Of a stretch of DNA of 24,000 nt, positions 4,049 through 24,000 are shown in pieces. Origin of the DNA: Gilliamella apicola (GTDB lineage Bacteria > Pseudomonadota > Gammaproteobacteria > Enterobacterales > Orbaceae); the NCBI RefSeq assembly GCF_003202915.1, contig NZ_QGLP01000005.1, forward strand, positions 326,721 through 350,720. The letters run 5' to 3'. Positions within the stretch are counted from its first letter, which is position 1. Each line of letters begins with the position of its first letter. A program made the translations under genes and the position numbers. The notes under the pieces were generated by a model. The model was not told the DNA's origin, made no database searches, and saw nothing but the letters and a program-made list of their open reading frames with translations.

Positions 4049-6649
4049 CTATTTTTTACTATTAACCCATTTACCATGAACATATTTCATCACCCAACCG
4101 GTAGATTTGCCGTTCACTTCAGATGTGACATATTGTTCCTTACTTTTACGACTAAAGCGAACAATACTCGGATTACCATTTGGATCATGACTTGGTGCTT
4201 CGGTTAAATAAATGAATTTTTCCGGTAAACGATATTTAAAACGTTGTAACTCTTCAATTAAAGGTGCACGAGTTTCCCTAGATTTAGGAAAATTATGTGC
4301 CGCTAAAAAGATACCTGATGCACCATCTCTTAGCACAAAATGGGCATCTGATTTGCTACATTTTAGTTCAGGTAAATCAACAGGATCTTCTTTAGGTGGA
4401 GCCACATCACCATTTTTTAAGATTTTACGAGTGTTTTTACAATCTTGGTTAGTACATCCCATATACAAACCAAAACGGCCTGACTTAAGATGCATTTCTG
4501 ATCCACATTTTTCACATTCAATAATTGGACCATCGTAACTTTTTACTTTAAATGTACCCTTTTCAACTAATGAGCCATCACAAATTGGGTTATTACCGCA
4601 AATATGCAACTTACGCTCATTATCCAGCAGATAACTATCCATCGCAGTATGACATTTAGGGCAACGTTTAAGTGCTCTTAGAGCATTAGTTTCTGCTGTT
4701 TCCGCTTCTTCCAAAATGTTCAAAGTTTCATGTTCAGGAATTAGGTTAATTGTCTGCTTACAACGCTCTTTCGGTGGCAACGCATAACCAGAACATGCTA
4801 AAAACACACCGGTTCCTGCTGTTTTGATTCCCATTTCACGACTACAGTTAGGACATTTAATTTCTGGTGTTAAAACGAGTGGATTTAATTGCATTCCTCC
4901 ATGATCAGGATCTTGTTCTGCAATTTCAAGATGTTGACTGAAATCTTCAAAGAATTGATCTAAAACTTCGCGCCATTCTTGTTTTTTATTGGCAATCTCA
5001 TCAAGTGCATACTCCATGCGTGCGGTAAAATCATAACTCATAAGATCATTAAAGTTTTCACTTAACCTATCAGTAACAATCTCACCGATTTTTTCCGCAT
5101 AAAAACGACGATTATCTAATCGTACATATCCACGGTCTTGAATGGTTGAAATAATGGTTGCATAAGTAGATGGACGACCAATTTCTCGTTTTTCTAATTC
5201 TTTTACCAATGAAGCTTCATTATAACGAGCAGGAGGTTTAGTAAAGTGTTGATCTGGATTTAAACTCAAAAGTTCTAAAATATCTTTAACCGATACTGCT
5301 GGTAACATCTTATCTTCATTATTTTTACTTAACTGTGATTGTACTTTTGTCCAACCATCAAAACGTAAAGTACGACCTTTGGCTTTTAAAGTAAAATCAC
5401 CCGCTTTAACAGTAACTGTAATAGAGTTATATTCAGCGGATGTCATTTGGCAAGCAACAAATTGACGCCAAATTAATTGATATAATTTAACCGCATCAAC
5501 GTCGACATCACTAAGACTAGTTGCTGAAATATTCACATCTGACGGACGAATTGCTTCATGTGCTTCTTGTGAATTTTTCTTACTTGTATAAACATTCGGT
5601 GACTTCGGTAGATATTTATCACCATAGTTTTTGCCAATATAATCGCGAACCATATTTAATGCATCTTGACTCAAATTTGTTGAATCGGTACGCATATAAG
5701 TGATATAACCGGCTTCATATAAGCGCTGGGCCAACATCATTGTCTTCTTCACTCCAAAACCAAGGCGAGTACTTGCCGCTTGTTGCAAAGTTGAAGTAAT
5801 AAATGGTGCAGTTGGATTACTTTTAGTCGGTTTTTCTTCAATATTGGTAACTTGGTATTGCTTGTTATTTAACTCTGCTAACGCAATATCAATAGAAACT
5901 TGATCTTTTGGTTCAAACGCATCATCTTTATAATGCGTGACTTGCATAGTTAATTTTTCTTGATTAGCAGTTTTTAAATCGGCATAAAGTTCCCAATACT
6001 CTTCAGGAATAAAAGCATGGATTTCACGTTCACGTTCAACAACTAATCGTACCGCAACTGATTGAACACGACCGGCCGATAAACCACGTGCCACTTTCTT
6101 CCAGAGTAACGGCGACACCATAAAACCCACCACACGGTCCATAAATCGGCGTGCTTGCTGAGCATTAACGCGATCCATATCCAACATAGCCGGATGTTTA
6201 AATGCATTTTGAATGGCAGTTTTAGTGATTTCATTAAATACAACGCGGCGATACTTATCATCATCACCACCAATAACATCTTTAAGATGCCAAGCAATGG
6301 CTTCCCCTTCTCTATCCAAGTCGGTTGCCAGATAAATCATATCCGCATCTTTGGCTAATTTTTTAAGTTCATCAACTACCCGCTCTTTGCCTGGCAAAAT
6401 TTCATAATGAGCTTTCCAACCGTTATAAGGATCGACACTCATACGGTCGACTAAGATCTGTTTTTCAGATCGTTTTACTTTCTTCTCAGCTTTATCTTTG
6501 CTGGCTTTATCATTGCGGTGGCTACTACCACTTACTGGAAGATCTCGAATATGCCCCACGCTTGATTTAACCACGAAATCTTTGCCAAGGTATTTATTAA
6601 TCGTTTTTGCTTTTGCTGGTGATTCCACAATAACAAGGGATTTTCCCAT
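4049..6649 (-). CDS. topA: DNA topoisomerase I
   Basis: 866 aa, [22 protein letters not shown] (TOPRIM). Contains the active-site region ITYMRTDST, and C-terminal CxxC zinc ribbons (CPNCS, CPKCH, CEKCG). Confidence 0.97.
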
Positions 6650-9025: not shown

Positions 9026-10432
9026 ATAACGTGTCAGCATCAACAACATCATCTTCAACTGCTGGTTTTCGGGTAAAGTGAAAAATCGTAGCAATAATAA
9101 ATGCTCCGATGAACATATCAATCACATACCACAATGCACCTTTGGTTACAGCATCAAGTGTAACTAAACCACCAAATGCAACCAAGGAATCAATACTATT
9201 AATCATACCTAGCATACCCACAACTGCTATACCTACAACGATAGCGATAATAACTCGTTACGGATCTTTAATGGCGAATGGAATCGCGACTTCAGTACTA
9301 ACTGCTAAAGATAAAAAGAACGCAGTGATACCAAACTGTTTTTCTTCTTTGGTATTTTTAGAACGTGATACCAGTAAAGAGGATATTGCTAATCCTAAAA
9401 GAGGAATTGCACAGCACATACGGAGCTCGCCATTAGGACCATAAACACTTTCTGCCATAGCTGCTAACGTAAAGACGGTGGCAGCTTTACTACAAGGTCC
9501 ACCCATATCAATCGCAGCAAGCACACTGATTCCTATACCTAAAAATGCCGCATTAACTTCTGACATGACTTTTAAAGTTTTTACCATTACTTTTACAAAC
9601 CAATCAAGGGGATATGACAAATCTTAAATATAAATAGGCGTCATGACCAGTAATGTTACTGTTGGAATAATCATCACCGGCATAACCGAAGCAATAACCG
9701 GATGGAATTTAACGGTTTTAAACCATTTAACAAAATAGCCAATAAGGACACTGAAAATCATTGTACCAATAAAACCAGTAGATACATGATTACTGCCAAT
9801 TGGATTATTTACTACATTTCCCATAATAAACGCTGGTGCCAAGGGGGCATTACCACCAATAGAGTAAGCCATATAAGCCGCAAGCACTGGCACCATCATT
9901 GCGAAGCCGTAGAAAGCCACTTGTTGCAAATTGGCAAAGAATTGATTGCTTGGTAAAATAGCTTTTCCTACCACATGTCCAGTCATTAAAACGATTGAGA
10001 GAAGAATACCGGAAGCAATGATAGCCAGTAAAAATTTACTGATACCAGTATTTAACGATCTAAATATCTCTTTACCAATACTCTCTTTTACTTCTTTTGG
10101 GGATGATAAGGCTTCGGCATTATTAAAAATGTTAGCTGTATTTTTAACCGCTTCACTAGTGCTAACCTTAATCACCTTTTTAAAAGGTTCTAACAGTTCA
10201 GCATTATCGATTGAAATATCTGTCGCTAACAAAATTACATCAGCTCTTTTCAAATCTTTCTCAGTTAATACATTATCAATTCCAGCTGCTCCTTGGGTTT
10301 CAATCTTACAATCCCATCCTCACTGTTTAGCTTCATTTTCAATTTTTTGTTTAGCAATATAAGTATGGCCATTTCGGCAGAACAGGCACATATAGCAACA
10401 ATCTTTTTATTTTTTAAGGATTCTTTACTCAT
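9024..10432 (-). pseudogene. PTS fructose-family EIIBC component, disrupted (1 frameshift + 3 in-frame stops)
   Basis: Four ORF fragments together read as a Fru-type EIIB (KKIVAICACSAEMA/HTYIAKQ...GWDCKIETQGAAGIDNVLTEKDLKRADVILLATD) followed by an EIIC (AIDMGGPCSKAA, EVAIPFAIKDP*RVI...). Lesions are a -1 frameshift near 10367/10368, in-frame TGA at 10320-10322, in-frame TAA at 9624-9626, and in-frame TAA at 9258-9260 (DP*RVI where relatives have DPLRVI). All fragments downstream of the frameshift share one frame. Confidence 0.8.
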
Positions 10433-11193: not shown

Positions 11194-12573
11194 ATGTCCG
11201 CAATAAAAATGAAACGAGTTTTAACCACACCTGCATTGATTGCATTTGGTTTAGCTTATATGGTTCCTTTAGGGATCTTTACCACTTATGGGGAAGTTAC
11301 CGTTGTCAGTAATGGACACTTACCTATAGCCTATATTATCACCCTTGCCATGATCTTTTTCACAGCATTGAGTTATTGTCGAATGGCAAACAAACTCCCT
11401 ATTGCTGGTTCGGCCTACACCTATGTACAACGAACATTTGGTGGAAAAGCCGGTTTCTTAGTTGGGTGGGCGCAAATTCTTGATTACCTATTTTTACCAA
11501 TATTAAATTACTTGGTTTTAGGCATCTATCTACATGAACTTTATGATAGTATTCCGGCTTATGTATATGTATTGGCATCTATTGTAGGTGTAAGTGTATT
11601 AAATTACCTTGGAATCAAGTTAATTAATTGGGCCAATATAACTTTGAATTTATTTCAAGCATTATTCATTGTTCTGTTTATTATTTTAACCTTAACAAAT
11701 GTCCATTTAACACCGGAAACAATGTTAAAACCAATATCAGTAACAAGCGATGATTTTAGTGGTTTATTTTCTGGAGCGGCCATATTATGTTTAGCATTCT
11801 TAGGCTTTGACGCCATTGCGACGCTAGCTGAAGAATCAAACGACGCTAAAAAAACCTTACCAAGAGCAATTATTGGTACCGTATTGATTGCTGGTTGTAT
11901 ATTTTTAGTTGTCTCCTATTGTGCGCATTTAGCCTATCCACAATGGACTGATTTTGCTGATAATAAAGATACTGCAAGTTTGGATGTAATGCGCAAAGTG
12001 GATAACATAAGTCACTTAACCAATGTACTTGGTAAATATGGCAATGATTTTATGTATAACTTCTTCCAAACAGCCTATTTAACTGGTGTCTTTGCCTCAA
12101 CTATGACAGCGCAAACTAGCGTGTCACGAATCTTTTATGCGATGGGGCGTGAAGGTGTGTTGCCAAAAAGGATCTTTTATAAAATTCACCCACGTTTTAG
12201 AACACCCTATTTATCAATTATTTTTGTTTCCTGTTTTTCCCTATTCGCTTTGGTACTTGATTTAAGCTTAGTCGTATCGATGATCAGTTTTGGTGCATTA
12301 GTTGCCTTCACCTTCGTTAATCTATGCGTAATCAAAAGTTACTTAAGTGGTACTAAAAAAACAGTACCAATGCTTTTAAAATATGGATTAATGCCAGCAA
12401 TTGGCGTATCACTTTCGTTATGGCTATGGACCAGTCTTGAAACGACAGCGATGACGGTGGGTTTAATTTGGTTAGCCATTGGATTTTGTTATTTACTTTA
12501 TCTAACTCGAGGTTTTACCAAATTATTGCCTTCAATTGATCATTCAGAATTGAATTCAATTATTAAAGATTAG
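11194..12573 (+). CDS. APC-superfamily amino acid/polyamine permease (PuuP/PlaP putrescine-importer-like)
   Basis: 459 aa with about 12 hydrophobic segments. Motifs resemble E. coli PlaP/PuuP as recalled: GLAYM, ALSYCRMANKLPIAGSAYTYVQ, GFLVGW..ILDYLF, GFDAIATLAEE, FGALVAFTFVNL. GAGGAG lies upstream. An alternative start is at 11209. Confidence 0.88.
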   Translation: MSAIKMKRVLTTPALIAFGLAYMVPLGIFTTYGEVTVVSNGHLPIAYIITLAMIFFTALSYCRMANKLPIAGSAYTYVQRTFGGKAGFLVGWAQILDYLFLPILNYLVLGIYLHELYDSIPAYVYVLASIVGVSVLNYLGIKLINWANITLNLFQALFIVLFIILTLTNVHLTPETMLKPISVTSDDFSGLFSGAAILCLAFLGFDAIATLAEESNDAKKTLPRAIIGTVLIAGCIFLVVSYCAHLAYPQWTDFADNKDTASLDVMRKVDNISHLTNVLGKYGNDFMYNFFQTAYLTGVFASTMTAQTSVSRIFYAMGREGVLPKRIFYKIHPRFRTPYLSIIFVSCFSLFALVLDLSLVVSMISFGALVAFTFVNLCVIKSYLSGTKKTVPMLLKYGLMPAIGVSLSLWLWTSLETTAMTVGLIWLAIGFCYLLYLTRGFTKLLPSIDHSELNSIIKD

Positions 12574-18288: not shown

Positions 18289-21200
18289 TTAAACAATACG
18301 TTGTAACTGGGCATACTTTAATGAACTTACCATAAAATGCAAACGGTTGAGAACATTAACCTCACCAGCACCATCATCAAAATCCAAATAGAGCAGATTC
18401 AGTTTTGGATTAAGATCGCGCATGCGCTTCTCCACTCCTTTAGACACAACATGATTAGCAATACAACCAAATGGCTGCAAGCTAATGACATTATTAATGC
18501 CATGCTCAGCAAAGGTCATAATACCTGCAGGTATTAACCAACCTTCACCATATTGATTCGCCAAATTCAGGATTTCTTGTGCTTTTTTCGCCATATCACG
18601 AATATTGTGGAATGGTTGATAATTTTTAAAACCAGACAAAATCTGATTAGTTTGCTCAATATACTTTTGTGCCACCTTCTCAAAAAAATGTACAAAGTAA
18701 GTCACAAAACTTTTGTTAACAATATAATTATCAACATTACTATCATAGTTAACAAAACACTGAGCAAAAAACTCAATCATTGGTGGAATTATTGGCTCAA
18801 TCCCCTGTTCAACAAGCCAGTCAACACTATGTTGATTACCAAAACTGTTATATTTAACGTAAATTTCACCAACAATCCCAATTTGCGGGCAATCCTTATT
18901 TAACGTCTCGATTTGATTAAAATGATCGACCGCTTCTTTTAACAACGCAAAGATCGCCTTTTTGCCTTTGTGTTGATTGATAAGATGTTGTAACTTTCTA
19001 ATATAAAGCTCTTTCAATTGGTTAGCTTGTTGTTTAAATTTGGCTCTAGGCGCAATCGAGTAGAACATCTTCGAAATCGAATCAGCAAATAACATCGCAA
19101 AAAACGTAGTTGGTAAAGTTTTTAGCCAATTAATTTTAAAACCTGGTTGCTCAATTTCATTAATATTACCGGTACTGAGCGACACGATAGGTATATCTTC
19201 GAAACCATTACTAATCATGGCTTTCTTAATCAAAGAAAGATAACTACTCGCTCGACACTGTCCACCCGTTTGAGTAATGCCGATAGCCACCTCATCACGT
19301 TGATATTTACCTGAATTAAGCGCCTTAATTATGTCACCTACAATAATGGTCGCTGGATAGCAAATCTCATTGTTACAATACTTTAATCCCCATTCGACCG
19401 AACTTTTATCTGGTTTTGGCAAAGTCTCAAGCTTATAGCCTGACAAAGCAAAAATTGGCGGTAATAATGGTGAATAAAAATCGGAGATATAAGGTGCTAA
19501 AATAGTCCGTCGCTGTTTATCTTGTTTAGCAAAAATAGCCGTCTTTTTACGCTCAACCACATTTAATGGTAGTTGGTGATTCATACGGATTGACTCAATA
19601 ATCGAACGTAAACGCAAACGCACCGAACCCGTTGCGGTGATCTCATCGACTCGAATTATTGTACAGGTCTTATCTTTTGACTCTAAAATCGCCTTACACT
19701 CATCGGTCACAATCGCATCAGGACCGCAACCAAATGAATTAAGTTGTACGAACTGAATATTTTTGGGTTGCTCAGCAACAAAACTCGCAGCAGCATATAA
19801 ACGGTTTGGATAACTCCATTGCGAACAGATTTGCAACTCAGGGGATAATTGATTAATCACTCCTAATACTGAATCCTCGGTTATCACATCACAACCTAAG
19901 GCATTTAAAATCTCTGGGGTTTTATGATTGATTAAACTATCGCTATGGTAAGGACGACCAGCCAAAATGAACACATATCGCCCCGTCTCTTTAGCATTAT
20001 TCAACACCTCAACTGCCTTGTTGTACAGCGAGTGTTTATATTCAGCTTGAGCAGCTAATGCATCAGAAAATGCTTGATTAGCTATCTTTTCAGTAATACC
20101 AAGCGAAGTTAAATAATTAATACAGCCCTTTTTCAATAATTTCTGATCACTAAAATTGATTACCGGATAATCCAACGGTACATTGTATTTGGTCTGCGGA
20201 TTGATAGCACTATTTACCACCTCAGCATAACTACTCACAATTGGGCAGTTATAACTATTAACGGCATTATCAAAATGGTCAGCCTCAAACACCACCATCG
20301 GCATAAAAATACGATCAACCTTCTGTTCGATCAGTTCCATAATATGCCCATGTACCAGTTTGGCAGGAAAACAGATACTATCCGACATCACCGTACCTGC
20401 CCCTTTCTCGTAGATATCGTGGGTAGAATATGGCGAAAGTGTCACATTAATTCCACTATTGGTTAACAAGGTATGCCAGAACGGAAAATTTTCATATTGA
20501 CCTAAAACACGAGGAATACCGATATTAAGCTTAGATTCAGCATTATGGATATTGGTTCGATCAAATAACAACGCATTTTTATAGTCAAACATATTAAATG
20601 CATTTTTATCTTGATATTGATTATTACTTAAAAAGCGTTCGCATTTATTACCAGAATAATAACGCTGACCATTAGCAAAACGATAAATCATAATATCGCA
20701 TTTATTTTCACATCCCTTACAGCGTGAAGGCTTGGCCTTATTATCTTCGGCTTTTTGTAGATTATCTAAACCAATAAATTGTGATGGAGTTTGATCTTGC
20801 TGATAGTGATTTTTCGCCACTAATGCCGCACCATAAGCACCCATCAACTCAGGAATATTAGAACTGGCAATCTGTGCACCAGTCAACTGCTCTAAAGCTC
20901 GAAATACCGCCGGATTCTTAAAAGTTCCGCCTTGCACCACAATATGATCGCCCAATTTACGCATATCATGTAATTTAAGTACCTTATGAATAGCATTTTT
21001 AATCACCGAAAAAGCTAGACCCGCTGAAATATCGCCCATAGTGGCATTTTCACGCAGAGCCTGTTTCACTTTAGAGTTCATAAACACTGTACAGCGTGTG
21101 CCCAAATCACAAGGATTGTTAGATTTACACGCTGCATCAGCAAAATCGATGGTATTGGAATTAAGGGATTTAGCAAAAGTCTCAATAAACGAACCACAAC

Positions 21201-22563
21201 CCGATGAACAAGCTTCATTTAACTCAATATGATTTACCACGCCATTAGCGATAAAAATAGCCTTCATATCTTGACCGCCAATATCCATGATAAAACTCAC
21301 CTTAGGATCGATATGTTTAGCCGCAGCAAAGTGAGCCATCGTCTCAACTAAACCATCATCGATAGCAAAAGCAGCTTTCAACAACTCCTCACCATAACCG
21401 GTAACTCCACTGCGAGCAATCACAATGTCTTTACCAGATGCCGCAATCTCATCCTTAAGTACGGTTAAACCTTTAATAAGTGCGGTAATTGAGTGACCGT
21501 TATTTGGTGCATAATAAGTAAAAAGCAGTTCATCATCTTCACTAGTCAAGGTAATTTTAGTGGTAGTTGAACCACTGTCGATACCTAAATAAGCATTTTG
21601 CTTTTGATAAGCACTTAAAGCTAAGCGAGGAATTTCAATATATTTGCGTTTTTGTTGCCAATCAGCAAAAGATAACGACTGATTAAATAATGGTTTTAAG
21701 CGAAAAGATTGATTAACTTGAATTTTAGTTGACGCATTTAACCTATCGATAAAATCATTTAGCTTGAGCTCACTACGCTCAATAGCATGAATTGCCGCCC
21801 CCCAAGCTGACAATAAAGTAGGATGCTCGGTGGTAACTATCTGATCTTCATTTAACTTTAGTGTTTCTAAAGCCGCTCTGCCTAACGTTGGAATAAACGA
21901 AAACGGTCCGCCAATCAACATTACTTTGGGAACAATATCATAACCACGCGCTAGCGTATTAACCAATTGAATACAAACCGCATGTAATACAGAATAAGCA
22001 ATATTTTCTTTGGAGACATTACGGCTAATTAAATTTTGCACATCGGTTTTGGCAAACACGCCACAGCGTGAAGCGATTGGATAGAGTTTATCATGTTTAG
22101 TTGCCAGCAGATCAAACTCCTGCACAGGGGTATTAAGCAAGGTTGCCATCTGATCTATAAAGGCACCTGTGCCACCGGCACAACTACCATTCATACGAAT
22201 ATCTGGTGGACGATCAGGAAAAAAGAAGATCATCTTACTATCTTCACCGCCAATATCGATTAACGTTCTAACCTCTGGATATTTGCGCTGCACCACTTCC
22301 GATGCGGCGACCACCTCTTGAATAAAGGCGATATCGGCTTTTTCCGAAATACCCATCCCAGCAGAACCAGTTACTTTCACGGATAACGTAACATCATCAC
22401 CAGTTTGCTGTTTAATTTCATCTAAAAGGGATAAAACGGTAGGTACAATATGGGTGTTATGACGAACATAATTGGTATAAATAAAATTATCCTGTTCGTC
22501 AAGCACGACACACTTAGCTGTCGTAGAACCAACATCCAATCCAAGTCTATACATTTTTGGCAT
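18289..22563 (-). CDS. Giant fusion of two BcrAD/BadFG (HgdC-type) activase ATPase modules with 2-hydroxyacyl-CoA-dehydratase-like/DUF2229-like modules; PlsA-PlsR (anaerobic plasmalogen synthase)-like
   Basis: 1424-aa uninterrupted ORF. Module 1 reads LGLDVGSTTAKCVV...DIGGEDSK...GSCAGGTGAFIDQ...ASRCGVFAKTDV. Module 2 reads LGIDSGSTTTKITL...DIGGQDMK...EACSSGCGSFIE...GTRCTVFMNSKV. A Cys cluster RCKGCENKCD...NKCERF follows (about 20638-20724). Two HAD-like regions come next (IGIPRVLGQYENFPFW...; ...NEICYPATIIVGD...TGGQCRASSY...). ORF confidence is high. The plasmalogen-synthase assignment is only moderate. Confidence 0.9.
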   Translation of the reverse strand: MPKMYRLGLDVGSTTAKCVVLDEQDNFIYTNYVRHNTHIVPTVLSLLDEIKQQTGDDVTLSVKVTGSAGMGISEKADIAFIQEVVAASEVVQRKYPEVRTLIDIGGEDSKMIFFFPDRPPDIRMNGSCAGGTGAFIDQMATLLNTPVQEFDLLATKHDKLYPIASRCGVFAKTDVQNLISRNVSKENIAYSVLHAVCIQLVNTLARGYDIVPKVMLIGGPFSFIPTLGRAALETLKLNEDQIVTTEHPTLLSAWGAAIHAIERSELKLNDFIDRLNASTKIQVNQSFRLKPLFNQSLSFADWQQKRKYIEIPRLALSAYQKQNAYLGIDSGSTTTKITLTSEDDELLFTYYAPNNGHSITALIKGLTVLKDEIAASGKDIVIARSGVTGYGEELLKAAFAIDDGLVETMAHFAAAKHIDPKVSFIMDIGGQDMKAIFIANGVVNHIELNEACSSGCGSFIETFAKSLNSNTIDFADAACKSNNPCDLGTRCTVFMNSKVKQALRENATMGDISAGLAFSVIKNAIHKVLKLHDMRKLGDHIVVQGGTFKNPAVFRALEQLTGAQIASSNIPELMGAYGAALVAKNHYQQDQTPSQFIGLDNLQKAEDNKAKPSRCKGCENKCDIMIYRFANGQRYYSGNKCERFLSNNQYQDKNAFNMFDYKNALLFDRTNIHNAESKLNIGIPRVLGQYENFPFWHTLLTNSGINVTLSPYSTHDIYEKGAGTVMSDSICFPAKLVHGHIMELIEQKVDRIFMPMVVFEADHFDNAVNSYNCPIVSSYAEVVNSAINPQTKYNVPLDYPVINFSDQKLLKKGCINYLTSLGITEKIANQAFSDALAAQAEYKHSLYNKAVEVLNNAKETGRYVFILAGRPYHSDSLINHKTPEILNALGCDVITEDSVLGVINQLSPELQICSQWSYPNRLYAAASFVAEQPKNIQFVQLNSFGCGPDAIVTDECKAILESKDKTCTIIRVDEITATGSVRLRLRSIIESIRMNHQLPLNVVERKKTAIFAKQDKQRRTILAPYISDFYSPLLPPIFALSGYKLETLPKPDKSSVEWGLKYCNNEICYPATIIVGDIIKALNSGKYQRDEVAIGITQTGGQCRASSYLSLIKKAMISNGFEDIPIVSLSTGNINEIEQPGFKINWLKTLPTTFFAMLFADSISKMFYSIAPRAKFKQQANQLKELYIRKLQHLINQHKGKKAIFALLKEAVDHFNQIETLNKDCPQIGIVGEIYVKYNSFGNQHSVDWLVEQGIEPIIPPMIEFFAQCFVNYDSNVDNYIVNKSFVTYFVHFFEKVAQKYIEQTNQILSGFKNYQPFHNIRDMAKKAQEILNLANQYGEGWLIPAGIMTFAEHGINNVISLQPFGCIANHVVSKGVEKRMRDLNPKLNLLYLDFDDGAGEVNVLNRLHFMVSSLKYAQLQRIV

Positions 22564-23467: not shown

Positions 23468-23513
23468 TGGGACTCTTTCAAGTATCAGGCTGATTGATGA
23501 ATTTTAAGGCGCG

Positions 23514-23542
23514 TATAATATAGCTATCTGCTTAAGCGTTCA
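23514..23542 (-). promoter_or_regulatory. Candidate sigma-70 promoter for queH
   Basis: The minus strand has TTGAAC (23537-23542), a 17-nt spacer, then TATTAT (23514-23519), about 45 nt upstream of the queH ATG. Confidence 0.4.
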
Positions 23543-23648
23543 AGTTTAAGTTACAATTTTGTTTTTCCGGATTAACATTTAATTTTTTGCTAAATTTACG
23601 GTGATAAAAAACCCCGTTCCTCAAAATTTTTTGGTTCTTTGAGTTTGG

Positions 23649-23887
23649 GACATTTGCTGTTTTGCGGTTATTTCTATACGGCGATTACGTCCGAGTAAAG
23701 AGGGTTGGCGAGAACCCTCTTTACCATCTCCCGCGACGACCACGCAAGTGGTCTCGATGTGACTGCCTGCCGCCTTCGTTCACTTTTAACGCACCGGCGG
23801 TGATTTGTTCCTGACAAAACACAGCCTTACCAAACATCCCTGTTTGCCATGCTAACCTCACTCAGTTGTCAGCACATTGCGAATGTC
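23649..23887 (+). ncRNA. Unclassified GC-rich structured non-coding element (candidate ncRNA, riboswitch or mobile-element RNA); strand tentative
   Basis: No ORF of 60 aa or more in any frame, with stops in all six frames. Hand-counted 70 G+C in 120 nt for 23681-23800, against about 35% background. A long-range helix pairs 23649-23657 (gacatttgc) with 23879-23887 (gcgaatgtc). It encloses at least five local helices, including a GCAA (GNRA) tetraloop hairpin. G-U pairs are tolerated only on the + strand. Confidence 0.3.
23695..23724. repeat. Perfect 12-bp inverted repeat (hairpin) inside the GC-rich element
   Basis: gtaaagagggtt (23695-23706), loop ggcgag, aaccctctttac (23713-23724). Confidence 0.9.
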
Positions 23888-23939
23888 GCACCACAAAATC
23901 GCTTTTTAACGTCCTAACATTATTTTTCTTATACCTAGC

Positions 23940-23968
23940 TTTTTAGTTCAAGGACGAAGAACTAAGAA
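23940..23968. repeat. 10-bp hairpin near the right window edge
   Basis: tttttagttc (23940-23949) pairs with gaactaagaa (23959-23968), 9-nt loop aaggacgaa, one G-U pair if read on the + strand. No following T-run, so it is not called a terminator. Confidence 0.7.
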
Positions 23969-24000
23969 ATAATAGTTAAGGATAGGTACAGACTCCGGAG

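Follow-up and report, generated by a model that had tools for sequence, protein, structure and literature searches.

The far end of the window, the 24-kb stretch of Gilliamella apicola DNA analysed here, carries a GC-rich island flanked on the minus strand by the end of an adhesin-like gene on one side and by queH on the other. The adhesin-like gene enters from beyond the window and ends ...S-G-V-C-T-Y-P-stop (23976..24000, minus strand; stop codon TAA, 23978..23976). It belongs to a paralogous family, termed P here, of predicted secreted, invasin/intimin-like proteins of ~465 aa, in which the ends are conserved (C-terminus ...GxCVYP*) and the C-terminal domains are variable. The family forms ~1400 sequence clusters, and every named match was from Gilliamella. 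Window positions 24000..23905 align to the 3' ends of P genes of Gilliamella apis together with their downstream linkers. The initial annotation had supposed that an RNA in the island might have its partner gene beyond 24000; the gene found there is this minus-strand invasin-like paralogue, and not a reverse transcriptase (RT), IscB/TnpB, integrase or transporter gene.

Between the P stop codon and the island lies a linker (23890..23975, minus strand) that contains the inverted repeat TTAGTTC-N9-GAACTAA (23965..23943) and in which a scan detected neither a T-run terminator nor a promoter. Linkers of this type also follow P genes in three other loci (L013, L021 and L024), and the P promoter, as seen in relatives, agrees with the consensus at 12/12 positions. 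On the other side of the island, queH has a promoter (TTGAAC-17-TATTAT, 23515..23543, minus strand) that lies outside the repeat unit E described below. In L010, an orthologous locus with 87% identity across 7.3 kb, a P gene (512-1894) is followed by an array of E copies and then by queH (P-E-E-E...queH); between the E array and queH lie a CRISPR array and two ORFs, and a remnant of the terminator-like end of E abuts the queH upstream region (~4983-5010). P and E precede queH in both the window and L010, and are absent from the queH locus of a close relative (L001, QueH 93% identical); the Orbus queH locus (L003) is also without E. Similarity between the window and the E-less locus L001 starts at the queH promoter region (23515..23543).

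The island stands out by its composition. The window as a whole has 37.3% G+C, and its G+C peak is the 240 nt starting at 23641 (0.508, against a 99th percentile of 0.459). The value of about 58% originally given for the island holds for 23681-23800 (70/120, 58.3%) but not for 23640-23910, which reaches only 49%. All reading frames are closed, as had been reported, the longest ORFs being 40-50 aa. A protein-database search with the six-frame pseudo-protein of the island gave no match, indicating that no spurious ORFs have been called over its relatives, and the same pseudo-protein had no match in viral contigs. Searches for tRNA and tmRNA found none, blastn with the island as query had no match among plasmids, phages or E. 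coli genomes, an exact 21-mer of the island (a 20-mer for the viral set) had 0 matches in genome, metagenome and viral collections, and there is no second copy within the window. A small ORF with an SD-like GAGG (23859..23856) and an ATG (23850..23848), 32 aa long in G. apis copies, was considered and rejected as a gene; in the window version a stop follows after 7 codons, and a 31-nt indel shifts the frame. Both strands of the island fold better than dinucleotide shuffles (minus strand z = -2.5, plus strand z = -3.55). The initial annotation was right to see here a structured non-coding element, probably acting at the RNA level, rather than a decayed gene.

The repeat unit E and its parts

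By sequence comparison, the island is one copy of a predicted structured module of ~283 nt, which we call E, read from the minus strand (23889..23606). The unit begins GCGACAUUCGC and finishes GGGGUUUUUU. Other copies of the island do exist elsewhere: it belongs to a multicopy family in relatives, of which G. apis NO3 has 71 or more distinct copies, 78-94% identical over exactly the 23889..23606 span and often in tandem with a period of ~390 nt. Many of the G. apis copies stand directly 3' of P genes in the same orientation; some arrays have no upstream P gene (L012:9251, L018:9622). Additional copies were found in Gilliamella sp. M0320 and Gilliamella sp. W8128. The copies are ~90% alike, variants assort freely among them and linkage between sites is low. 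No terminal inverted repeats were found in E, the best end-to-end alignment scoring 8 against a shuffled mean of 7.2. The leader of tandem copies holds a promoter-like sequence (TTGGCA-17-TAATTT) that falls short of what the promoter scan accepts.

Read 5' to 3' on the minus strand, E opens with a hairpin, SL-A (GCUGAC...GUUAGC, 23851..23873), placed by RNAalifold at columns 73-81/93-101. Its pairs 74-100 and 79-95 are G-U in 72/72 copies, impossible on the plus strand, and its pair 73-101 alternates between U-G and C-G among the 72 copies. Hairpin 1 (GCAAAC-AGGGAU-GUUUG, 23831..23847) is unchanged in the 72 copies save for the loop variants AUGGAU, AAGGAU and AGGAAU. Hairpin 2 (GGCUGUG-U-UUUGU-CAGGA-ACAAA-U-CACCGCC, 23796..23826) is an optional module, which a 31-nt deletion excises exactly in 23 of the 72 copies; at its fourth pair L005 has U-A and L008 has G-C (both G. 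apis), and the window copy has a U.C mismatch. Hairpin 3 (CGUU-loop-AACG, 23777..23791) combines an invariant stem with a variable 7-nt loop. It is followed by the composite stem 4 (GGCGG...GUCAC-loop-GUGAC...UCGCC, 23733..23774), in which 55 copies have C-G and 17 have U-G at pair 184-204, the window copy has G-U at pair 176-213, and the inner loop varies between AUC, GCA, GUA and AUA. A single A.A mismatch interrupts this stem in the window copy, which, being mismatched in both hairpin 2 and stem 4, could be decaying.

Beyond stem 4, a single-stranded linker, GGGAGAUG (23725..23732), in which GGA is invariant in 72/72 copies, leads to a 12-bp hairpin (GUAAAGAGGGUU-CUCGCC-AACCCUCUUUAC, 23695..23724) with an invariant stem and a variable loop; its third pair is A.A in G. 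apis and A-U in the window. Then comes a long-range helix between GGACGU (23692..23687) and AUGUCC (23653..23648), formed by columns 255-262/309-316 in 71-72 of the 72 copies. It surrounds an A/C-rich stretch that is apparently unpaired, and has a G-U pair in the window where G. apis has G-C, a change consistent with the minus strand only. Nearly every copy of E is closed by a terminator-like end (23606..23649), composed of an interrupted stem (CCC/GGG and CUCAAA/UUUGAG) followed by UUUUUU and too irregular to be picked up by a simple terminator scan. This end matches an earlier remark that a minus-strand RNA could stop at an interrupted hairpin and T-run near 23607-23655.

The helices drawn by eye in the initial annotation can be judged against this family. 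The hairpin at 23831-23846 is real and, through compensatory changes, the best-supported helix of the unit; the perfect 12-bp hairpin at 23695-23724 is likewise real, being kept in 72/72 copies while its loop varies. The GCAA-tetraloop hairpin survives in part, as GCAA/UUGC is present only as an alternative fold inside composite stem 4. Pairing of 23768-74 with 23796-802 would need a window-specific substitution, and across the family 23796-23826 pairs within itself to form hairpin 2. Pairing of 23811-17 with 23866-72 has no partner left in the 23 copies with the 31-nt deletion. The outer helix P1 (23649-57/23879-87) is not kept: relatives pair 23648-23653 with 23687-23692 instead (GGACGU/ACGUCC, 72/72).

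The TwoAYGGAY core and the probable transcribed strand

A search of the whole window against Rfam at the gathering threshold returned nothing. Below the threshold, the core of E (23786..23854, minus strand) matched the TwoAYGGAY model (RF01731) on the minus strand only, with 29.6 bits (E = 0.014) against a gathering score of 43 bits. Copies of E from the G. apis locus L009 scored 43.0 and 41.1 bits, the best of them reaching the gathering score, and the matches in the window and L009 copies cover model positions 43-118/120 only. Bona fide TwoAYGGAY RNAs score 65-76 bits, have the same junction sequences and also occur in multiple, including tandem, copies. The motif was described by Weinberg et al. 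(2010; PMC2864571) as a candidate RNA without an explained function. As in its members, the core of E combines two adjacent GGA-loop hairpins with a short closing stem and the conserved junctions UUAGCA, AAG and GGUGCGUUAA, which recur in Psychromonas and metagenome TwoAYGGAY RNAs. Both are found in Gammaproteobacteria, in multiple copies per genome and in tandem pairs (Psychromonas NC_008709; L047, with a 374-nt period). The hairpin 1 loop reads AGGGAU in the window and AUGGAU in some G. apis copies, the hairpin 2 loop is a degenerate CAGGA, and the two-hairpin AYGGAY arrangement is found in E. Moreover, an alignment of 10 sequences from Gilliamella, Psychromonas and metagenomes has compensatory changes in 4/9 pairs of hairpin 1, and other lineages build the same two-part fold of hairpin 2 from unrelated stem sequences.

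E also departs from TwoAYGGAY. Its closing stem P1 is ~4 bp long, namely the short AGCA/UGCG stem of the Rfam alignment, whereas many members reach up to 24 bp and some have a very small one; the outer helix that RNAalifold predicts for E contains 16 G.G mismatches. The hairpin 2 loop is CAGGA and not AYGGAY, and the hairpin is absent in a third of the copies. E adds a conserved 3' domain of ~190 nt (hairpins 3 and 4, the 12-bp hairpin, the long-range helix and the terminator) that has no Rfam match, and it reaches at least 70 copies per genome, tied to one gene family. The neighbours of metagenome TwoAYGGAY RNAs are diverse (RT, tyrosine recombinase, UbiA and unknowns), and none is a P homologue. 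An nhmmer profile of the entire E had no match in marine TwoAYGGAY contigs, which suggests that the 3' domain is, as far as seen, specific to Gilliamella. The island had been presented as an RNA of unknown class: this no longer applies to the 5' third, which is of the TwoAYGGAY class, but stands for the 3' two-thirds, which match no described family. Its novelty is thereby lowered, yet kept, because the function of TwoAYGGAY is unexplained and the 3' two-thirds are without a described relative.

Copy-to-copy variation avoids the predicted stems and concentrates in the loops: 10/156 paired columns are variable versus 38/127 unpaired ones (Fisher p = 1.5e-7). Non-canonical cells make up 1.5% on the minus strand and 2.2% on the plus strand. 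Two pairs that changed from G-C to G-U in the window copy alone favour the minus strand, and two pairs of E alternate between U-G and C-G when read on that strand; counting against it, the frequent G-to-A change in alignment column 208 would leave a wobble pair if read on the plus strand. Mutual information detected no covarying pairs among the 72 copies, which are too alike, and no double compensatory change was seen among the Gilliamella copies, so that the 3' two-thirds of E have support from conservation and not from covariation. The Rfam match, the wobble substitutions, the terminator-like end and the gene context all contradict the original plus-strand call, which was made from the GCAA loop.

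Proposed function and alternative explanations

On balance, we lean towards E being a minus-strand RNA module that lies 3' of P genes and is transcribed with them, putative binding of a CsrA-type protein being its most likely action. In the window, the mRNA of the P gene ending at 23976 would carry E at its 3' end, since no terminator intervenes and the P promoter has a perfect consensus in relatives. The transcript would end at the interrupted hairpin and U6 (23649..23606), and this stop would insulate queH with its separate promoter. Thereafter E may survive as a stable 3'-UTR-derived RNA, and tandem copies may be made via read-through or from weak promoters of their own. A dimeric CsrA/RsmA-type protein would be bound jointly by the two GGA hairpins and the single-stranded GGGAGA, and E would either titrate it in trans or recruit it in cis to the adhesin mRNAs.

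That E binds a CsrA-type protein is our best guess. Its GGA hairpins are 28 nt apart, and the first is a near-perfect predicted CsrA site: ten consecutive bases of hairpin 1 (ACAGGGAUGU) fit the CsrA SELEX consensus, RUACARGGAUGU. Rfam clan CL00106 holds both TwoAYGGAY and CsrB, and according to the RMfam paper (PMC4333381) TwoAYGGAY contains strong matches to CsrA sites. Like the CsrB/RsmZ sRNAs of this clan, E is non-coding, has a terminator end and carries GGA both in the loops of hairpins and in a single-stranded linker, and its hairpin 1 fits a predicted high-affinity CsrA site. It is unlike CsrB or RsmZ, however, in that GGA is not enriched: the window copy has 5 against 5.2 expected from 1000 dinucleotide shuffles (P = 0.67), the L009 copy has 6 against ~5 (1000 shuffles, P = 0.38), and the opposite strand has only 1. 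The CsrB/RsmZ RNAs also have 1-5 copies, where E has tens, in the 3' UTRs of adhesin-like genes. No GacA/UvrY box (TGTAAG-N6-CTTACA) was found with up to 2 mismatches on either strand of 23560-24000; L009 and L010 have one site each (reported on both strands, hence four hits), all away from the E leaders. csrA had no match in the 361 kb of loci examined, which is uninformative as to the genome, and literature searches combining Gilliamella with CsrA, sRNA or repeats gave no relevant paper.

Other known systems offer partial parallels. The 3'-UTR-derived sRNAs CpxQ and SroC are single-copy, short, base-pairing and Hfq-dependent. E resembles this type in sharing the terminator of the upstream gene, with none between the stop codon and the RNA, but it is long, multicopy and tandem, and its complementarity to a P 5' UTR is no better than that of shuffles (RNAduplex, -73.7 kcal/mol; shuffle mean, -75.5), giving no antisense target there. 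ERIC, Correia and VCR/attC elements are high-copy structured intergenic repeats. E is likewise high-copy and structured, breaks assemblies and forms co-oriented arrays alternating with genes, but it lacks terminal inverted repeats, is not a single imperfect palindrome and has no R'/R'' boxes by eye. Whereas integron attC cassettes carry diverse promoterless genes, E accompanies paralogues with strong promoters of their own, and its arrays, unlike attC arrays, are dispersed among housekeeping genes. A MITE or attC identity was rejected on the lack of terminal inverted repeats and on a fold of several hairpins rather than a single palindrome.

An alternative that we consider unlikely, but take seriously, is that E acts purely in cis as a 3'-UTR module, whose compact GC-rich fold and terminator would guard adhesin mRNAs from 3' exonucleases and insulate genes downstream, queH among them, with no protein partner in trans. 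Such a role would suit the location of E straight after P stop codons without a terminator between, the hairpin and T-run that end just upstream of the promoter of queH, the perfect-consensus P promoters (very strong transcription being assumed) and the tandem copies without a convincing promoter of their own. Yet a conserved 283-nt unit with a TwoAYGGAY core far exceeds the needs of stabilisation or termination, the same core stands in unrelated gene contexts in other bacteria, and the arrays at L012:9251 and L018:9622 have no upstream P gene. In addition, the ACAGGGAUGU and GGGAGA loop sequences are invariant, which argues for sequence recognition and not for stability alone. It also seems improbable that E matters at the DNA level, as a selfish or segmentally amplified repeat or as a conserved 3' homology block that, with the conserved 5' region of the P genes as its counterpart, would let recombination and gene conversion shuffle the hypervariable adhesin tips, with the RNA motif as a passenger. 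The very high copy number, tandem arrays and assembly breaks would fit such an element, as would P genes with conserved ends and variable C-terminal domains, and the presence of P and E upstream of queH in the window and L010 and their absence from L001; ~90% alike copies with freely assorting variants and low linkage are what gene conversion would produce. In neutral repeats, however, variation would not be expected to be so scarce in stems and to gather in loops, E lacks terminal inverted repeats, its orientation relative to P is fixed, and distant bacteria share the core next to different genes.

The remaining explanations tie the island to one neighbouring gene. That the island encodes a plus-strand RNA (riboswitch or leader, retron msr/msd, or IscB/TnpB guide RNA) whose partner gene lies beyond 24000 is largely refuted and, to us, very improbable, even though the plus strand folds well (z = -3.55), has a GCAA tetraloop and would turn the column-208 variant into a wobble. 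The neighbour is a minus-strand adhesin-like paralogue, with no RT, IscB, TnpB or integrase; the Rfam match and the G-U evidence lie on the minus strand; the Rfam search matched no HEARO, retron msr or riboswitch model; and at least 71 tandemly arrayed copies do not fit a single riboswitch, retron or guide RNA. A retron msr/msd was rejected in its own right, the neighbours being P and queH with no RT, no retron msr being matched in Rfam and the originally proposed P1 being unconserved. A leader or riboswitch of queH, downstream on the minus strand, is scarcely credible: E is indeed upstream of queH and co-oriented with it, and the terminator-like hairpin could serve as an expression platform, but a conserved queH promoter lies downstream of the E terminator, the queH loci of L001 and Orbus (L003) lack E, no copy found other than that of L010 adjoins queH, and even there a CRISPR array and two ORFs intervene.

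Adhesin variation as a possible context

The physical linkage of E to P genes provides TwoAYGGAY with a testable context, be it host colonisation, adhesin regulation or adhesin variation. A bolder and rather doubtful extension is that E/TwoAYGGAY RNAs are the shared RNA part of an adhesin-variation system with dozens of invasin-like genes, in which consensus promoters, 5' UTRs carrying 9-nt repeats and hypervariable lectin-like tips would be combined with 1-4 protein-binding RNA copies per gene. E would then couple the whole adhesin family to a global RNA-binding regulator, through titration or mutually exclusive expression, or would be a recombination handle for tip shuffling, and TwoAYGGAY would have its first functional context since 2010. 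The motif is now found in a culturable bee-gut symbiont, inside a larger unit present in at least 70 copies per genome and physically linked to invasin-like surface proteins that form a very large family without annotation, and the Gilliamella E offers an experimental system for asking whether TwoAYGGAY binds CsrA. Assemblies break at copies of E, whose arrays account for contig breaks in Gilliamella and amount, in each genome, to tens of kilobases of unannotated sequence.

Composition of the island and identity of its core

In agreement with the initial annotation, 70 of the 120 nucleotides at 23681-23800 are G or C (58.3%), and all reading frames across the island are closed, the longest ORFs reaching only 40-50 aa. 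The G+C content of 23606-23910 is 49-51%, that of the whole window 37%, and the highest-G+C 240-nt stretch of the 24 kb starts at 23641. Folding of the island beats dinucleotide shuffles on both strands. No tRNA or tmRNA was found in the window, and no Rfam family reached its gathering score anywhere in it. At permissive thresholds, the sole notable Rfam match of the window was TwoAYGGAY (RF01731, clan CL00106, of which CsrB is a fellow member), at 23854..23786 on the minus strand (29.6 bits, E-value 0.014, model positions 43-118). The matched span consists of two GGA-loop hairpins (hairpins 1 and 2) and a short closing stem, and it lies within a repeated structured RNA unit, hereafter E. Copies of E from Gilliamella apis score 43.0 and 41.1 bits to RF01731 (E-value about 1e-5), 43.0 being the gathering score, on the strand corresponding to the window minus strand. 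The island had initially been left in an unknown class; for the core of E this no longer applies, as Rfam places it in the described TwoAYGGAY class.

The Psychromonas members in the alignment of the original TwoAYGGAY description are multicopy and have the junctions UUAGCA, AAG and GGUGCGUUAA in common with E. When metagenomes were scanned with a pattern built from the blocks common to E and these members, 25 contigs were returned; 14 TwoAYGGAY matches were present among 20 metagenome loci scanned with Rfam, 12 of them full-length (65-76 bits). These RNAs are likewise multicopy, one tandem pair lying 374 nt apart. When the Gilliamella, Psychromonas and metagenome sequences are compared, four of the nine pairs of hairpin 1 are changed on both sides with pairing kept, and hairpin 2 keeps its two-part fold although the stem sequences are unrelated. 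The remaining ~190 nt of E (hairpins 3 and 4, a single-stranded GGGAGA, a 12-bp hairpin, a long-range GGACGU/ACGUCC helix around an A/C-rich stretch, and a terminator-like end) matched no Rfam family, and an HMM of the whole unit had no match in the marine TwoAYGGAY contigs. Overall, E falls in a class already described, as an extended and massively amplified variant of that candidate RNA family.

Several neighbours of the marine RNAs were also recorded. In two samples, a full-length TwoAYGGAY RNA is preceded, at a distance of 201 nt, by the end of a gene for a 529-aa reverse transcriptase (RVT_1; L034 1823-3412, minus strand; L037), and on another contig a tyrosine recombinase gene (Phage_integrase and SAM_4; L033 268-1266) ends 199 nt upstream of one. 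A t44 RNA (RF00127, 73.8 bits; L046 2073-2178, minus strand) lies ~500 nt from a TwoAYGGAY copy on a marine contig, probably in an ordinary ribosomal-protein operon context.

Copies of E and the functional strand

Direct DNA searches with the island (plasmids, phages, E. coli genomes, and exact-word scans of genome, metagenome and viral collections) retrieved no relatives, nor did a six-frame pseudo-protein of the island searched against the protein database. The successful query was one minus-strand frame, translated with stops as X and used in a degenerate back-translated scan of species-representative genomes: it returned 23 loci, all in one genome, Gilliamella apis NO3, and an additional decayed fragment in Gilliamella sp. 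N-G2. BLAST within the NO3 loci identified 71 distinct full-length copies with 78-94% identity to the window copy (23889..23606, minus strand), all spanning the equivalent of window 23889..23607. Most measure about 283 nt; a shorter class (about 252 nt) is missing exactly the 31 nt of hairpin 2, and further classes have 16 nt inserted in the terminator loop. Many of the copies are close to the end of a contig or on contigs of 1-3 kb, indicating that the repeats break assembly. E is also present, together with the P genes described below, in Gilliamella sp. M0320 and W8128. The N-G2 fragment (L028 3163-3340) is a solitary 3' half of E flanked by two unrelated genes on the minus strand and no longer has an intact 12-bp hairpin, showing that copies can decay in place. 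In the G. apis copies, an SD-like GAGG followed by an ATG within E (window 23859..23827, minus strand) opens a 32-aa arginine-rich ORF. This small ORF was rejected as a gene because in the window copy it ends after 7 codons (TGG TAA) and the common 31-nt indel shifts the frame.

No double compensatory changes were seen among the Gilliamella copies, which are too alike to show them. On the strand of E, variable columns nevertheless amount to 10 of 156 when paired versus 38 of 127 when unpaired (Fisher p = 1.5e-7); the same comparison gives a weaker depletion in stems for the opposite strand (p = 1.3e-3), where non-canonical cells are more numerous. Two polymorphic pairs are C-G in some copies and U-G in others, several pairs are G-U throughout, and two of the differences between the window copy and G. 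apis convert G-C into G-U; read on the plus strand, these wobble pairs would all be A.C mismatches. One common variant, at column 208, favours the plus strand instead. Together, the variation and wobble pattern, the strand of the Rfam match, the T-run and the orientation relative to the P genes establish that the functional strand of E is the minus strand, reversing the plus-strand call of the initial annotation.

Genomic arrangement of E and the P genes

In G. apis, E copies are found 3' of paralogous genes encoding secreted invasin/intimin-like proteins of ~465 aa (P), on the same strand and about 90 nt past the stop codon, as a single copy or as a tandem array of 2-4 with ~105-nt spacers; a few arrays have no upstream P gene. 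In the window, 24000..23976 (minus strand, stop codon at 23978..23976) encodes the characteristic P C-terminus (...SGVCTYP*), and the linker 23975..23890 matches the linkers downstream of P genes. The orthologous G. apis locus (L010, 87% identity over 7.3 kb) shows the order P-E-E-E, CRISPR array, two ORFs, E-terminator remnant and queH. The C-terminus, the linker and this locus assign the window to a Gilliamella species and identify the gene beyond 24000, previously suggested as a possible partner of a plus-strand RNA, as a minus-strand P paralogue. E is a conserved, structured, multicopy module with a TwoAYGGAY core, co-oriented with and directly 3' of adhesin-like genes. About half of the P-E linkers carry an optional ~45-nt insert with a hairpin CATTGCC-CTGCCAAG-GGCAATG (L005 about 440-500, L007 about 9950-10000, L013 about 12180-12225, and others); the window copy is without it. 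The CRISPR array of L010 (3170-3617; 28-nt repeat GTTCACTACCGTATAGGTAGCTTAGAAA, 32-nt spacers) lies between the E array and queH, and no such array is present in the window. In Gilliamella sp. M0320, a P/E module has cas3 and csy1-3 within a few kb of it (L029 14776-21353).

The NO3 loci analysed contain at least 30 P paralogues (L007 8475-19112, L009 214-7257 and L010 512-1894). The P protein had no match in Pfam, NCBIfam or PDB sequences; a profile search of the protein database gave 1396 clusters (90% identity), and the 120 matches listed were all Gilliamella hypothetical proteins or unnamed metagenome sequences. The best structural matches of the AlphaFold model (pLDDT 75, pTM 0.72) were the ectodomains of invasin (1cwv, E-value 4e-6) and intimin (1f00), with Ig-like domains and a lectin-like tip. 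Variability within the family is concentrated in the lectin-like C-terminal domain, which is hypervariable. P genes have a perfect TTGACA-18-TATAAT promoter and a 5' UTR of about 230 nt (L009 5672-5887; L007 12700-12942 and 17470-17712) in which a CA-rich heptamer (CAACACA, CACCAAA or CAACATC) occurs three times and 9-nt repeats are present in varying number, for example five copies of GACAATTTC at L007:17712; no obvious Shine-Dalgarno is visible in these UTRs. These regions look like a contingency or phase-variation locus.

Past the island on the minus strand, an interrupted hairpin with T6 (23649..23606) is followed by the queH promoter, TTGAAC-17-TATTAT (23543..23515). The QueH sequence assigns the window to the Orbaceae. 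A metagenomic relative (L001, QueH 93% identical) has no island upstream of queH, similarity starting only at the queH promoter, and Orbus hercynius has a different neighbour gene 140 nt upstream of queH. The reading of the island as a queH leader was therefore rejected, on neighbouring genes, strand and distribution. In L001, a divergent MatE gene replaces the P-E block (L001 3165-3568 versus window 23468-23560), with the breakpoint just upstream of the queH promoter; presence of the P/E module thus differs between close lineages. Directly downstream of queH is a 1424-aa ORF (18289..22563, minus strand), found at the same position in L010 (6039-10325).

Possible function of E

No terminator was found between the P stop codon and E in the window, which suggests that the P mRNA would carry E at its 3' end. 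This transcript would stop at 23649..23606, before the separate promoter of queH is reached, and E might afterwards build up as a stable RNA. Tandem copies have a leader similar to a weak promoter (TTGGCA-17-TAATTT), which failed the scan criteria, so read-through from the strong P promoter is an equally good source of these copies. Our best functional guess is that E would be bound by a dimeric CsrA/RsmA-type protein. The sequence displayed by hairpin 1, ACAGGGAUGU, matches ten consecutive bases of the CsrA SELEX consensus; hairpin 2 presents CAGGA 28 nt away, and the linker with GGGAGA is single-stranded. The TwoAYGGAY motif is linked to CsrA both by Rfam and by the RMfam paper (PMC4333381). 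Unlike in a classical CsrA sponge, GGA is not enriched in E and no GacA box was found with it; the lack of hairpin 2 in a third of the copies also counts against a classical sponge. Our confidence is high for the identity of the element and modest for this mechanism.

A purely cis-acting module, contributing 3'-UTR stabilisation and transcription termination, is plausible; however, it would leave unexplained both the invariant loop sequences and the arrays without an upstream P gene. The copy number and mosaic variation of E would suit a DNA-level repeat or recombination handle, but neither the stem-versus-loop pattern of variation nor a core common to distant bacteria agrees with it. MITEs and attC sites were rejected because E has no terminal inverted repeats and no palindromic architecture, and the plus-strand riboswitch, retron and omega RNA initially favoured were rejected on neighbouring genes, strand and distribution. 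We conclude that E is real and probably functional; the new, testable part is its linkage to a huge orphan invasin-like gene family in a bee-gut symbiont.

At the 5' end of E, the tandem copies scanned in L009 also have a promoter-like site on the antisense strand (TTGTCA-18-TAAATT, matching at 9 of 12 positions; 4295-4324, 4682-4711 and 5076-5105, corresponding approximately to window 23866..23895 on the plus strand), which points away from E and is partly formed by the invariant GCUGACAA.
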